A stretch of DNA of 64,000 nt. It comes from a virus. A model generated the notes under the pieces. That model did not search any database. It was not told the origin of the DNA and worked only from the letters and a program-made list of their open reading frames with translations. Below are positions 2,302 to 59,401 of this stretch, piece by piece; the first letter of the stretch is position 1, and the number at the start of each line of letters is the position of its first letter. Where the stretch lies: IMG/VR virus record IMGVR_UViG_3300009129_001089, one strand, 5' to 3'. The translations under genes and the position numbers were made by a program.

Positions 2302-3103
2302 CGCAAAGTTGTGGAAATATATGTTCCATTAATGTATCATAATATGCTTTTATAGAGTGATCTCTAGCATCTATTTTTAAAAAACCTTCTTCTAAATGAG
2401 TTTCAGACCAATCCAACGTTTCTGGATCTATATAAATGCCGGAATGAAGAAAAGGAAAACTAGGAAAAAAAGGCACAGGATCATTCCTAAGAGCAACACG
2501 GAAGTGAGTGGGTCTATTTCCAAAAAAGGTCGTAGCGACTTTGGGGCTACCGAAAGTATAAATTTGAACATTGTATCCCTCCTCATGAAACCATAGTCCA
2601 ATTATTTGGGCGATTGCACCACCTAACGAATGACCTGTTAAATATACTGTTTTACGTAATTTATAATTTCTCTTAATATCTGAGTAAATTATATGTGAGG
2701 CATTTCTAAAACCCATATGAAGTAGTGTGCCTAAATCTTTATCATGATGCATTCGCATATCAACATCAGTTTTTACATTTTCCCTATTATCTGTTCCTCG
2801 AAAAACTAGAATAGAAACACCGTCTCGATCTAAAAGATAATATGAAAATTCTTCTTTTAACCTTTGTCCGTCGGAATCAAATAAATCATTAAATTTAGCA
2901 AATTTTGGATCATCCGGACTTCGTCCTGGTTTTTCATAACTTTTAATACAATATTGTGCCATTTCGGTTAACTCCGAAACGTCTACAGGTAATGTAGTAT
3001 AGTTACCATATTCACCGTCATTTACTAATAATTTATTGGTTGCGGCACACCCTGATAATAAGAATATTAAAATAATTAGTATTAACCATTTTTTATTCTG
3101 CAT
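2288..3103 (-). CDS. Class 3 lipase lipoprotein
   Basis: Signal peptide with lipobox LSGC; VFRGT, HMGF, GHSLGG, TFGSPK, DPVP, DHS. Confidence 0.85.
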   Translation of the reverse strand: MQNKKWLILIILIFLLSGCAATNKLLVNDGEYGNYTTLPVDVSELTEMAQYCIKSYEKPGRSPDDPKFAKFNDLFDSDGQRLKEEFSYYLLDRDGVSILVFRGTDNRENVKTDVDMRMHHDKDLGTLLHMGFRNASHIIYSDIKRNYKLRKTVYLTGHSLGGAIAQIIGLWFHEEGYNVQIYTFGSPKVATTFFGNRPTHFRVALRNDPVPFFPSFPFLHSGIYIDPETLDWSETHLEEGFLKIDARDHSIKAYYDTLMEHIFPQLCDECK

Positions 3104-6076: not shown

Positions 6077-7181
6077 TATCTGTTTTGGGTTCCTCTTTTG
6101 GTTCCTCTGTTTTTGGTGGCAGAGGAGCTGTTCTTGGGTTTCCTTGTTTGTCATACAAATCTGCTCCGGTTATTTCTAATTTTTTCAAGGTTACTGTAAC
6201 ATTTTTATAAACACGATCTCGTATTACTACAAGATCAACAGTATCACCTACATTTTTAGTTCTTATTTCATCTGTTAGATCGCCCTGTCTATTAACAGCC
6301 TTACCATTAACACTAATGATAGTATCAAATTTTTCTAACCCTTCTGGCATAGGATCCGATGGTGCAATCATACAACCAAAAGTATTAGGAACTGTTATTC
6401 CAGATTCTTTTACATCTGGTAAATTTTCTATATCAGCTCTATTTAATGGATGTAGATCTACTAATCTTACACCCACAATAGGCCGCACGAATTCTTTACC
6501 TTCTTTAATAACATTCACAATTTCTTTAGCATCATCATTTCGCAATGCTAATGCAACTCCGGCATGAACTTTAGTTTGTGCAGGATTAACTATCATTGAA
6601 TTGACTCCTACTACGTTGCCTGCTGTATTAACTAAAGGCCCTCCTGAATTACCAACATTAATTGTAGTATCTGTTTGAATGTATCGTACATACGGAGATC
6701 TTACAATTCTTTCGTTATTACTAACAATACCTTTTGTAATAGACCATGCCATACCGAATGGATGACCTATTGCAAAAACATCCATACCATCCCAAGGTTC
6801 ATCTTCGGACCATTCTAAATAAGGTAATGGTTTTTTACGTTCAGGTATATGAATAACGGCTATATCTGCAAGAGGATCCGTACCTATGATTTTTACTTCA
6901 TAAATATTCCAATCGTCTTTATCATAAAATGCTAATTTTAATTTAGTTGTTCTGTGGACACAATGATAATTTGTTACAATGTGCCCTTTTTCATTTATTA
7001 CAAAACCACTACATGTACCCCTTCCATTAGGACCGAGAACAGAAGCATTATTACCACTTTGCATTAAAATAAAAACGGTTGCCCCTTTTACTTTATCAAC
7101 TATTTCTTTATTAAGAGAACTAGTAAAAGCAACGGAAGCGATCAATAGATTTGCTATCATTAGAATTAGAAATTTTTTCAT
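6060..7181 (-). CDS. htrA: HtrA/DegP-family serine protease with one PDZ domain
   Basis: Signal peptide; TNYHC, DIAV, GNSGGPL triad; C-terminal PDZ. Confidence 0.92.
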   Translation of the reverse strand: MKKFLILMIANLLIASVAFTSSLNKEIVDKVKGATVFILMQSGNNASVLGPNGRGTCSGFVINEKGHIVTNYHCVHRTTKLKLAFYDKDDWNIYEVKIIGTDPLADIAVIHIPERKKPLPYLEWSEDEPWDGMDVFAIGHPFGMAWSITKGIVSNNERIVRSPYVRYIQTDTTINVGNSGGPLVNTAGNVVGVNSMIVNPAQTKVHAGVALALRNDDAKEIVNVIKEGKEFVRPIVGVRLVDLHPLNRADIENLPDVKESGITVPNTFGCMIAPSDPMPEGLEKFDTIISVNGKAVNRQGDLTDEIRTKNVGDTVDLVVIRDRVYKNVTVTLKKLEITGADLYDKQGNPRTAPLPPKTEEPKEEPKTDNETVK

Positions 7182-57300: not shown

Positions 57301-57645
57301 TTACTTTGCTTTTCCAATCTGCGTAAGTTTTTTAGTTATTTGTTGTTGGAACCATTTAAGTACAATAGGTATACTTACATTAGATGTTAATCCAAACAAA
57401 TATCCAACCGGATATTTATAACTTGCATAAGGTGCAAGTTGTGGAATATTTGAAAAAACAATCGATATGAGTAAATATCCTGTTACTGCCATACCAAGAT
57501 TTATAAACCAGTCAAAGACAATCAAACCTCTGTGTCCTGCATATTTGTCTCTGTTATCTTGTCTGTAATTGAATAAGAATATAAATGTAGACGAAAATGC
57601 TACTACACCCATCATTACTAATTCATCTATTGCAAATAAATCCAT
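57301..57645 (-). CDS. Small multi-TM membrane protein (holin-like?)
   Basis: Three hydrophobic segments, basic C-terminus; TAAATA and AGGAGG upstream. Confidence 0.6.
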   Translation of the reverse strand: MDLFAIDELVMMGVVAFSSTFIFLFNYRQDNRDKYAGHRGLIVFDWFINLGMAVTGYLLISIVFSNIPQLAPYASYKYPVGYLFGLTSNVSIPIVLKWFQQQITKKLTQIGKAK

Positions 57646-57663
57646 ATAGTTCCTCCTAAATAT

Positions 57664-58242
57664 TTATCTTTTATCATGGTACTTAATAGAACTATTCGGA
57701 TAATATTTGTTTATTAATTCTGTTCTTTTATTTGCAAACCCTTTGATAATACAGTTGTTTATACACCCTATCGGCAAGGTTGTTACCTTATCAAATCTAT
57801 CTTCTGACCAAAGCATACAAGTTTTATATACATCCTCGGGTTTTCCTGTTATTTTCTTTTTATTAAATACACATCCATAATTTATGGTAATAGGAATATC
57901 ATTAGGTGGTTCAAGAAATACAGGAAAACCTACGGTGTTATTTAAATCTACTAATGTGTCATCAGTAGCAATAACTTTAGGCTGAAAAATAACAAAAGTT
58001 TTATCTGTGGGATGTTCGTGTACTGTAAAATATTTTTCTACGAACTTTTTAAATGATAAATTTTTAGGGAAGGGTAACTTATTTTGCTTGTATAACTTAT
58101 AAATTTCTATGACATTTTCTAACGAGGCAGGCCCAGGGTTTGTACAACACGGATCTTTAATACATTCCTGGCAAGGTTGGTCAGTGCATTTTGTATATTT
58201 TTGTCCGTTTATTAAAAATTGTTTAAATTCATCATGTAACAT
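57664..58242 (-). CDS. Cysteine-cluster (YkgJ-like) protein
   Basis: CQEC...CC, GCVF, C, P.GC; start moved 3' of tRNA-Tyr. Confidence 0.55.
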   Translation of the reverse strand: MLHDEFKQFLINGQKYTKCTDQPCQECIKDPCCTNPGPASLENVIEIYKLYKQNKLPFPKNLSFKKFVEKYFTVHEHPTDKTFVIFQPKVIATDDTLVDLNNTVGFPVFLEPPNDIPITINYGCVFNKKKITGKPEDVYKTCMLWSEDRFDKVTTLPIGCINNCIIKGFANKRTELINKYYPNSSIKYHDKR

Positions 58243-58247
58243 AAGTT

Positions 58248-58332
58248 TGGTGGGCAGGGAAGGAATTTGCACCCTCACAGCATTATGCGGCGGATTTACA
58301 GTCCGTTGAGCTCACTCTTGCTCAGCCTACCC
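58248..58332 (-). tRNA. tRNA-Tyr(GTA)
   Basis: GGGTAGG/CCTGCCC acceptor, CTGTAAA loop, long variable arm, encoded CCA; atypical T-loop TGCAAAT. Confidence 0.85.
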
Positions 58333-58339
58333 ATGTGTT

Positions 58340-58414
58340 TGGCACGCCTGCAAGGATTTGAACCCTGACTTAGTGGTTTGGAATCACTTGTGCTACCGTT
58401 GACACTACAGACGT
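58340..58414 (-). tRNA. tRNA-Trp(CCA)
   Basis: ACGTCTG/CAGGCGT acceptor, TTCCAAA loop, TTCAAAT T-loop, encoded CCA. Confidence 0.9.
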
Positions 58415-58486
58415 ATTGGGATAGTTATTGCAATAAAACAATACCTGTCGCCAATAGTAAATTGGTAATGTGTGTGAAACTAACAT
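58370..58486 (-). CDS. Putative Tyr/Trp-rich leader peptide (38 aa) overlapping tRNA-Trp
   Basis: SD AAGGA, then MLVSHTLPIYYWRQVLFYCNNYPNT...; stop inside the tRNA. Confidence 0.4.
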   Translation of the reverse strand: MLVSHTLPIYYWRQVLFYCNNYPNTSVVSTVAQVIPNH

Positions 58487-58512
58487 AATGATTCCTTTTT
58501 TAATGTTAATAT

Positions 58513-58554
58513 GCTGACTACCCGCATCCTAGCACCTCCGCCACCCTCATCAGC
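58513..58554 (-). ncRNA. G-rich stem-closed element at the start of a putative late transcript
   Basis: GCTGA...TCAGC enclosing six G-runs; TAAATA at 58561-58566. Confidence 0.35.
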
Positions 58555-58563
58555 TAAAATTAT

Positions 58564-58635
58564 TTATGACAATACGACCCAAGTCCAGGCCCATACAAGT
58601 AATATAACTCCAATAAAAACTGCTACTCCTGCCAT
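58564..58635 (-). CDS. 23-aa hydrophobic peptide
   Basis: SD AGAGGT; MAGVAVFIGVILLVWAWTWVVLS. Confidence 0.45.
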   Translation of the reverse strand: MAGVAVFIGVILLVWAWTWVVLS

Positions 58636-58780
58636 GTTACCTCTTTAACTGAATTAACTGAAACACCTTCGCTTAACCCTGCAAAGTAATTTGCTTGTTT
58701 AACTGCATCACTAAAATCTACGGCCTTAATAAAAGTAGTATCTATTATCGTGTCTACTAAAAATTTAATTTCGTAAAATT

Positions 58781-58969
58781 TCATTTCTTTATTGAATTAA
58801 TTAAGGTTTCTAATTGTTCAACCGGAGAAAGATCAACTGGTTTTGGCACATATATTGAATTGATTAAGGTTTCTAATTGTTCCATCGGAGAAGGACCAAA
58901 ACCCGACTGTGGATGCTCCGTTCCTTGGGCGTTACCTAATTCTTGTTCTAGTTTTTTTCGTTCTTTCAT
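58781..58969 (-). CDS. Small protein with duplicated SP.EQLETLINSI
   Basis: About 39-bp imperfect direct repeat, period 63 nt (58791, 58854). Confidence 0.6.
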   Translation of the reverse strand: MKERKKLEQELGNAQGTEHPQSGFGPSPMEQLETLINSIYVPKPVDLSPVEQLETLINSIKK

Positions 58970-59187
58970 ACATCCTCCTTTGGAACTATTTGGTATCCGC
59001 CTTTGTTATAATTAATTGCTACTGTAAATCCTTCTGGTATTTTTACTTCTTTCTTTTCTTTTTTAACTCCGCCGCCTTTTCCTGCTCCTGCCATCATGCG
59101 TTCTGCAAAGTTATCAGGTATGTCATCTAAGACAGAATGCCGAGTATATTGTAAATACCCGGCATTTTCTTTTATAATTTTATCCAT
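58966..59187 (-). CDS. Hypothetical early protein
   Basis: YNKGGYQ motif. Confidence 0.6.
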   Translation of the reverse strand: MDKIIKENAGYLQYTRHSVLDDIPDNFAERMMAGAGKGGGVKKEKKEVKIPEGFTVAINYNKGGYQIVPKEDV

Positions 59188-59401
59188 GTAATCTATATTC
59201 TTTATCCCAGCGAGTATAATGCCTAACGTTTTGATCTAACAATCTATTACTGCGGATAATGTATGCTACATTCTTATCAAGCATCTTTCTTGTTAGTGGG
59301 GACATTTCCTTGTCTAACTTTTGAAGATGCATACATTCTGCAACTTTTTCTGCTTTTTTTTGTTGTGCCCTTACATATTGTTGGAAAGTTAAATCTGCCA
59401 T
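59180..59401 (-). CDS. Hypothetical early protein
   Basis: SD AAGGAG. Confidence 0.6.
   Translation of the reverse strand: MADLTFQQYVRAQQKKAEKVAECMHLQKLDKEMSPLTRKMLDKNVAYIIRSNRLLDQNVRHYTRWDKEYRLHG

Follow-up and report, generated by a model that had tools for sequence, protein, structure and literature searches.

The window, by which we mean the whole 64,000-nucleotide stretch of DNA analysed here (IMG/VR virus record IMGVR_UViG_3300009129_001089), is a contig of an uncultured marine giant phage, with a GC content of 33% and genes that lie exclusively on the minus strand throughout its length. It carries a tRNA-Trp(CCA) gene (58340..58414, minus strand; called by ARAGORN, 51 bits against Rfam RF00005), which is followed after a spacer of 7 nt by a gene for tRNA-Tyr(GTA) with a long variable arm and an unusual T-loop (58248..58332, minus strand). 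Both genes encode their CCA. The tRNA-Tyr was not called by ARAGORN and scores 32.3 bits against RF00005, for a cut-off of 29 bits. A 192-aa gene with no assigned function (57664..58242, minus strand) begins 5 nt past the tRNA-Tyr CCA, without a Shine-Dalgarno sequence (SD).

The features 5' of this tRNA pair all lie on the same strand. Just ahead of the tRNA leader is a 23-aa hydrophobic ORF (MAGVAVFIGVILLVWAWTWVVLS; 58564-58635), whose stop codon is overlapped by the heptamer ATAAATA (58561..58567). Across the whole window this heptamer occurs 21 times in the sense orientation against 6 in antisense, mostly 11-38 nt 5' of gene starts, and because it is strand-biased and placed ahead of gene starts in this way its behaviour is consistent with that of a T4-type late promoter core. 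There follow a 57-nt G-rich segment containing a hairpin closed by GCTGA/TCAGC (58499..58555), an SD (AAGGA, 58493..58497) 6 nt 5' of an ATG, and the 38-codon leader ORF that this ATG opens (58370..58486; ATG 58486-58484, TAA 58372-58370). A 5-mer SD at the proper distance is found at 23% of long ORFs versus 4.9% of all ATGs.

The 23-aa ORF, which probably encodes a real small membrane peptide, is kept in one relative of the locus (L056) and has a counterpart in another (L068); in a third (L057), as in a Logan contig, it is longer by an in-frame insertion of 18 nt. The small ORFs near the leader measure 23, 53 and 62 aa. A contig from an RNA library spans 58512-58743 only, and thus stops short of the leader. 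A sigma-70 promoter candidate within the leader (TTAACA-16-TATGTT, 58509-58482; 9/12) was discarded, as its -35 element is deleted in L057 and L068 offers no fit; the idea that the leader is a decayed tRNA was likewise set aside, with nothing called in 58415-58560 by Rfam (E up to 1) or by relaxed ARAGORN.

A leader ORF rich in Tyr and Trp codons runs into the tRNA-Trp gene

The leader ORF translates as MLVSHTLPIYYWRQVLFYCNNYPNTSVVSTVAQVIPNH and is divided by the tRNA boundary into 24 leader codons (MLVSHTLPIYYWRQVLFYCNNYPN) and 14 codons within tRNA-Trp (TSVVSTVAQVIPNH), after which comes the TAA. A sequence-only reading of this DNA had described an SD and an ATG at 58486 opening a frame with four Tyr and one Trp in 13 codons, the two amino acids of the downstream tRNA-Trp/tRNA-Tyr pair, and had followed this frame through the tRNA-Trp anticodon to a stop at 58370; all of its letters and coordinates hold. 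The codons in question are Y10, Y11, W12, Y18 and Y22. The frame overlaps tRNA-Trp by 45 nt, passing through the CCA anticodon, and does not enter tRNA-Tyr, such that a same-strand frame has its stop codon inside a valid tRNA-Trp gene.

Tyr and Trp together make up 22% of the leader codons past the start in the window and 43% in L068, against a background of about 6-7%. At least four Tyr and one Trp in any 13-codon stretch were found in 3 of the 456 short ORFs (24-60 aa) of the window (0.7%), and the same richness within the first 24 codons in 8 of the 456 (1.8%); among dinucleotide shuffles of the leader that stayed open, 3.8% reached the observed Tyr/Trp count. Because these chance rates run from 0.7 to 3.8%, the enrichment is out of the ordinary without being extreme, and it was singled out after the fact. 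It is common in itself for an ORF to lie across the 5' end of a tRNA: an ATG frame crosses that end in 37 of the 87 distinct tRNAs (43%) in related phage loci.

Relatives of the locus keep the start codon, the frame and the Tyr/Trp richness

Metagenome contigs were searched with the downstream 192-aa protein, which gave 12 loci, and only the two closest of these, L056 (94% amino-acid identity) and L057 (86%), carry the tRNA pair. In the nine farther homologues (40-57%) with a readable upstream region, a gene of ~320 aa stands in that place and there are no tRNAs; L058 is truncated at its 5' end, so that its upstream region falls outside this count. An exact tRNA-Trp pattern search of IMG/VR yielded one additional and more diverged contig, L068, and the exact patterns had no match in GTDB genomes. 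IMG/VR searches with the neighbouring 192-aa and 399-aa proteins gave no relatives, and a 53-aa extension of the leader peptide used as a query gave no candidates. Clamp-loader relatives (about 60% identity) lack the tRNA pair and have no tRNA within 10 kb, and cultured phages have only the tRNAs in common with the window.

The three relatives that came to light independently of the ORF (L056, L057 and L068) all keep the ATG and the frame, and every one of the indels in their leaders (6 nt in L057, 24 nt and 3 nt in L068) is in frame. The L056 leader, on a contig of 253 kb, is identical to that of the window. Besides the 6-nt deletion, the L057 leader shows S4L, C19R and a synonymous TAC>TAT as its three substitutions. 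L057 is also without the 57-nt G-rich segment; its SD comes directly after ATAAATAATTTT and the region reads ATAAATAATTTT-AAAGGAATCATT-ATG, in which ATAAATA-N5-AAAGGA-N6-ATG matches the canonical late gene starts of the window phage. In L068 the leader reads ATG AAA CAT TGG CGA CAA TTT TAT TAT TAT TAT ATC TAT TCC AAT up to the tRNA, and the encoded peptide (MKHWRQFYYYYIYSN) retains the Tyr/Trp richness despite strong divergence: 8 of the 45 bases that align with the window differ and a further 27 columns are gaps, versus 2 differences in about 165 positions for the tRNA pair. The SD of L068 is a weaker AAGAA, and ATAAATA is retained 5' of the leader in all three relatives.

The sequence-only reading had made its proposal depend on the ORF and its cognate codons being kept in relatives. 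Such conservation is seen in L056, L057 and the diverged L068, where the ATG, frame and Tyr/Trp richness are all retained; the locus has an SD-ATG mini-ORF with codons that match the downstream tRNAs and that is kept in relatives. The clade is narrow, with only two or three independent lineages behind this conservation. In a phmmer search of 1.84 billion protein representatives, the leader peptide found two variants, P0005 (...MLVLHTFYYWRQVLFYHNYLPN...) and P0006 (MLIIHTFRYWRQVLFYYTNPN...), together with one long repetitive protein and nothing else; because P0005 and P0006 are discoverable only through intact frames, they were not counted as unbiased evidence. Marine metagenomes from 14 studies contain the stretch. 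Logan records 4 and 16 were left out of the counts, since unlisted substitutions prevent their reconstruction. Record 16 has paired +1/-1 indels, which are in frame on balance, and in record 4 the 180 nt 5' of TATTGG are swapped for 51 nt and the tRNA's TAA is also replaced.

Constraint acts on the nucleotides and frame of the leader

When the window is compared with L056, the 4-fold sites of the flanking genes differ at 6/56 and 2/19 positions, the leader at 0/72 and the tRNA pair at 3/166; in the comparison with L057, the corresponding figures are 18/50 and 3/15 for the 4-fold sites, 3/66 plus the 6-nt deletion for the leader, and 4/165 for the tRNA pair. Changes in the leader are far fewer than at nearby 4-fold sites, and among close relatives the leader is about as conserved as the tRNAs. 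The three changes in L057 fall at codon positions 2, 3 and 1, and the replacements are radical (S>L, C>R). Constraint acts on the nucleotides and the frame and not on the peptide, as in leader peptides.

RNA structure accounts for part of this constraint. A 16-bp hairpin (58414..58456, minus strand), whose ATTGG/CCAAT base adjoins nucleotide +1 of tRNA-Trp, holds Y11, W12, Y18 and Y22 and has a folding energy of -13.2 kcal/mol (z -3.7), which was equalled by 0 of 200 shuffles. It is present in the window, L056 and L057, while L068 keeps only the 5-bp base and its fold is not stable. The base of this hairpin is formed by two conserved blocks, ATTGGCGA and TC(C/T)CCAAT, one for each arm.

The sequence-only reading had also pointed out an ATTGG (58455-58451) able to pair with either an upstream CCAAT (58465-58461) or a CCAAT at the tRNA boundary (58419-58415). 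All three motifs are present in the window; the alternative pairing does not survive comparison, the upstream partner being deleted in L057 and absent in L068, and the only conserved pairing that overlaps the regulatory codons is the ATTGG/CCAAT hairpin base. No terminator-like site was found on the sense strand of 57600-59200, and the leader hairpin, which ends at nucleotide +1 of the tRNA, is rich in AU and lacks a U tract. Of the attenuator-style leader that had been proposed, the SD-led ORF with its cognate codons stands and is kept in relatives; the terminator is absent, the alternative pairing is not conserved, and the frame stops short of tRNA-Tyr.

History of the tRNA cassette

The 57-nt G-rich segment aligns in blocks with a ~200-nt tRNA-like element of L068 and L076, of which it is probably an internally deleted remnant. 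The element is intact at about 6345-6545 (minus strand) in L068 and about 2436-2625 (plus strand) in L076, in the same place as the window segment, and consists of an acceptor stem of 7-9 bp, a D arm and a GTTAGGTTCGATTCCTAAC T arm, with a ~115-nt structured insert replacing the anticodon region. It was not called by Rfam or by ARAGORN in its tRNA, intron and tmRNA modes. L076 has TATAAATA ahead of the element and no leader; the element is followed by AAGGAATTAC and directly by tRNA-Tyr, without tRNA-Trp, ATG or ORF. AATTAC lies on either side of the tRNA-Tyr of L076.

The leader and tRNA cassette are flanked by a direct repeat, AATCAT(T)ATGTTA, found at the leader start and immediately 3' of the tRNA-Tyr CCA (12/13 in L056; AAACTTATGTTA in the window), with copies at 58240-58250 and 58484-58492 in the window and at 2749-2763 and 2992-3006 in L056. 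These flanking repeats suggest either cassette insertion with duplication or an ongoing homogenisation of the flanks. In relatives without tRNAs, ATGTTACC, or (A/T)TGTTACC, is the native start of the 192-aa gene. On the strength of the repeat and of this native start, we suggest with modest confidence that the SD and ATG of the leader may be a displaced copy of the 192-aa gene start, made when the tRNA cassette was inserted. In L068 only ATGTTATCAAATAAA, a remnant of the 192-aa gene start, follows tRNA-Tyr (about 6125-6140, minus strand) and an unrelated 141-aa gene comes next, implying that the tRNA cassette moved or that its neighbour was replaced.

Leaders at other phage tRNA loci

Other phage tRNA loci had been named by the sequence-only reading as a place to look for upstream ORFs enriched in cognate codons, and the outcome is mixed. 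The 41 first-in-cluster tRNAs of related phages show no general excess of cognate codons upstream; two ORFs of the related giant phage G003 do fit the expectation. At one, AGGAG-N7-ATG opens MEDEHEEEDEEDEER, which includes 9 GAA codons and runs directly into tRNA-Glu(UUC) (L028 2401-2524, = L080; minus strand), preceded by a terminator-like hairpin. At the other, on the same contig, AAAGGA leads an ORF encoding MKRKAKKT and a stop, 57 nt 5' of three tRNA-Lys genes, and this SD can pair with a CTGTCCT just past the stop. Among the SD-preceded short ORFs listed at 50 tRNA blocks, these are the sole two in which the fraction of in-block amino acids exceeds 0.5. The Glu-rich leader is absent before tRNA-Glu in G001 and G002, and no further copy was found in IMG/VR. 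Literature searches returned no published account of codon-matched leader ORFs before phage tRNA genes.

Unannotated tRNA-Tyr genes in giant phages of Caulobacter and Brevundimonas are 84% identical to the tRNA-Tyr of the window. In Caulobacter phage CcrColossus (L001 2460-2500), a terminator is followed by GAGGAG-N6-ATG AAC AAC GGC GGG TAA, a 5-codon mini-ORF that contains no Tyr and ends 9 nt 5' of an unannotated tRNA-Tyr heading a tRNA array. The members of this tRNA-Tyr lineage (the window, L001 2501-2587, L068 and L076) have an 8-nt T-loop, TGCAAATT or TGCGAATT, which is not of the TTCRANN type, and other tRNA-Tyr genes of marine phages (L069-L075) share the anticodon arm and have a normal T-loop. 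In four of the latter (L069, L070, L072 and L073), tRNA-Tyr comes after a tRNA-Pro(TGG), and a small membrane-protein CDS (...VLQVL(F/I/L)GA) stops at a TAG formed by nucleotides 8-10 of that tRNA-Pro.

A possible sensor of tRNA supply

What the sequences show is the ORF and its SD, the promoter-like motif, the hairpin, the conservation of the frame and of the Tyr/Trp richness, and the nucleotide-level constraint; translation of the ORF, stalling of ribosomes on it, and the direction and size of any effect on tRNA maturation are inferred. The reading that we tentatively prefer, while putting it somewhat below an even chance, is that a codon-matched leader senses the supply of Tyr- and Trp-tRNA. 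The stretch would then be the 5' leader of a late-transcribed tRNA-Trp/tRNA-Tyr precursor and would carry a translated, codon-matched ORF. Ribosomes would load at the SD and AUG, read the Tyr and Trp codons and, unless slowed, run 45 nt into tRNA-Trp, where a ribosome inside the tRNA body would keep the D and anticodon arms unfolded. If Tyr-tRNA or Trp-tRNA were scarce, ribosomes would dwell on the upstream Tyr and Trp codons, which in the window clade lie on the 5' arm of the hairpin adjoining the RNase P site, and with ribosomes held upstream the tRNA could fold and be cut out. As dwelling ribosomes would thus leave the tRNA free to fold and be cut, tRNA output would track decoding demand, with no terminator needed.

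Such a sensing leader fits the SD and motif signals, the in-frame indels, the Tyr richness and the parallel at tRNA-Glu. Several points count against it. The only Trp codon is part of a stem arm that is conserved; a hairpin rich in UAU can give rise to Tyr codons passively, as can, in L068, a (TAT)4 repeat, in which any change of length is inherently in frame. The passage of one ribosome would hold up folding for no more than a short time, and it is uncertain which way the effect would go, because a ribosome stalled at Y22, or on the run of Tyr codons in L068, would sit over the RNase P site. The locus has no terminator and no conserved alternative pairing, the L068 hairpin is unstable and the L068 SD weak, and the frequency of ORFs across tRNA 5' ends and the lack of a cognate excess at the 41 first-in-cluster tRNAs likewise tell against a sensor. 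It is possible, though we hold this a little more loosely than sensing as such, that the leader is a terminator-less supply sensor in which ribosome speed on Tyr/Trp codons decides the folding and maturation of the tRNA-Trp/Tyr precursor, and that large phages more widely gate their tRNA genes by cognate-codon leaders, an undescribed habit of which this would be one architecture.

Almost as likely as a sensor is that the frame is an incidental by-product of a structured tRNA leader. The leader would then be conserved as RNA, as a hairpin by the RNase P site and as the 5' UTR that follows a late promoter; its SD and ATG would be the displaced or duplicated start of the downstream gene, left by insertion of the tRNA cassette; its Tyr codons would be a by-product of UAU-rich sequence; and any translation would, after the RNase P cut, yield a non-stop message without consequence. 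In keeping with this, the conserved blocks are the arms of the base of a hairpin with a z of -3.7, the substitution pattern is not protein-like, the AATCAT(T)ATGTTA repeat recurs past the tRNA-Tyr CCA and ATGTTACC natively starts the 192-aa gene where relatives have no tRNAs, L076 has AAGGAATTAC 5' of tRNA-Tyr yet no ATG, ORF or tRNA-Trp, and some ATG frame crosses the 5' end in 43% of related tRNAs. An incidental frame, however, needs several coincidences jointly: a cognate enrichment with a chance of about 1-4%, three in-frame indels, an ATG and Tyr richness in the hairpin-less L068, and a good SD behind a promoter-like motif. The 5' part of the leader that lies outside the hairpin, from the SD to codon 10, also speaks against it, being nearly invariant in close relatives.

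We consider it unlikely that the ORF is a genuine small gene, encoding a fast-evolving, aromatic-rich peptide of 29-38 aa whose last 14 codons and stop are shared with tRNA-Trp through tight packing. The SD, ATG and promoter-like motif would suit such a gene, the neighbouring ORFs are small too, P0005 and P0006 were predicted by metagenome gene callers, and the membrane-protein CDS of L069, L070, L072 and L073 likewise ends inside a tRNA. The peptides of the window and L068, however, share only WRQ, F-Y and Y-(P/S)-N, all of which fall where blocks of nucleotides are conserved; the replacements are radical, and the length varies over that range; the tRNA sets the sequence of the last 14 residues; processing of the tRNA would destroy the message across the 45-nt overlap; and phmmer returned little beyond P0005 and P0006. 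Very improbable indeed is a classical transcription attenuator of the trpL/pheL type, in which transcription would end at a terminator hairpin ahead of the tRNAs except when a ribosome stalled. It would explain a short cognate-codon ORF ahead of regulated genes, but it is opposed by the lack of a sense-strand terminator-like site, by the nature of the sole leader hairpin, AU-rich, without a U tract and ending on tRNA nucleotide +1, and by an ORF that ends inside the tRNA and not before it.

Phage tRNAs, tRNA-Tyr included, rescue infection after host defences cut host tRNAs (PMC11555353, PMC10264068). If the preferred sensing leader is real, it would give the phage a demand-driven tRNA supply through a leader that reads the codons served by its own tRNAs, which could help against host nucleases that cut tRNA-Tyr (cf. 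PMC11555353). Leader-peptide sensing, a feature of enzyme operons, would in this terminator-less form also reach stable RNA genes, and what would be new is the cognate-codon sensing of tRNA genes by a leader frame that runs directly into the tRNA. The question bears on why phages carry tRNA genes and on how such genes are controlled. Should the frame be incidental, the locus still documents how, in marine giant phages, tRNA cassettes are placed after late promoters and gene starts.

Comparison with known leader systems

Ribosome-mediated leader-peptide attenuators control amino-acid operons, as in trpL, pheL and hisL of E. coli. These attenuators (PMC1183508, PMC3082878) resemble the window in having a short, SD-led ORF whose peptide sequence is unimportant and whose cognate codons are enriched, with decoding speed as the would-be signal in the window. 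They differ in that the genes regulated in the window would be tRNAs and not biosynthetic enzymes, in that the window has no terminator or antiterminator and its ORF ends inside the regulated RNA, and in that two amino acids are matched there to two tRNAs. Translational attenuation of the ermC/cat kind (cf. PMC5118997) shares with the window the absence of a terminator and the principle that the 3' arm of a hairpin would be freed once a ribosome stalls on the 5' arm. In ermC/cat the stall is signalled by an antibiotic and a ribosome-binding site is freed; in the window tRNA supply would be the signal, and the RNase P site or the tRNA fold would be what is freed. Nor is the window hairpin conserved in L068.

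Same-strand overlaps between a CDS and a t(m)RNA gene have been catalogued for Pfam-positive protein genes, where they are rare, at about 1 in 15,000 CDSs, and should lead to non-stop mRNAs (Hudson, Lau & Williams 2014, PMC4131195). As in those cases, a same-strand frame enters a tRNA gene in the window and an RNase P cut would remove its stop codon; unlike them, the window frame is a 24-codon leader with no conserved peptide and a cognate-codon bias. The tRNA-Glu leader of G003 is alike in layout, being also an SD-ATG mini-ORF of cognate codons reading into a tRNA; in the window the match is to two tRNAs and makes up a moderate share of the codons (22-43%). The leader ORF belongs formally to the same-strand CDS/tRNA overlaps, probably without a bona fide protein. 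As proposed here, it would work most like a combination of trpL/pheL sensing with terminator-less hairpin opening of the ermC type, and it is a member of neither family: a terminator was looked for and not found, and the alternative pairing is not conserved in relatives.
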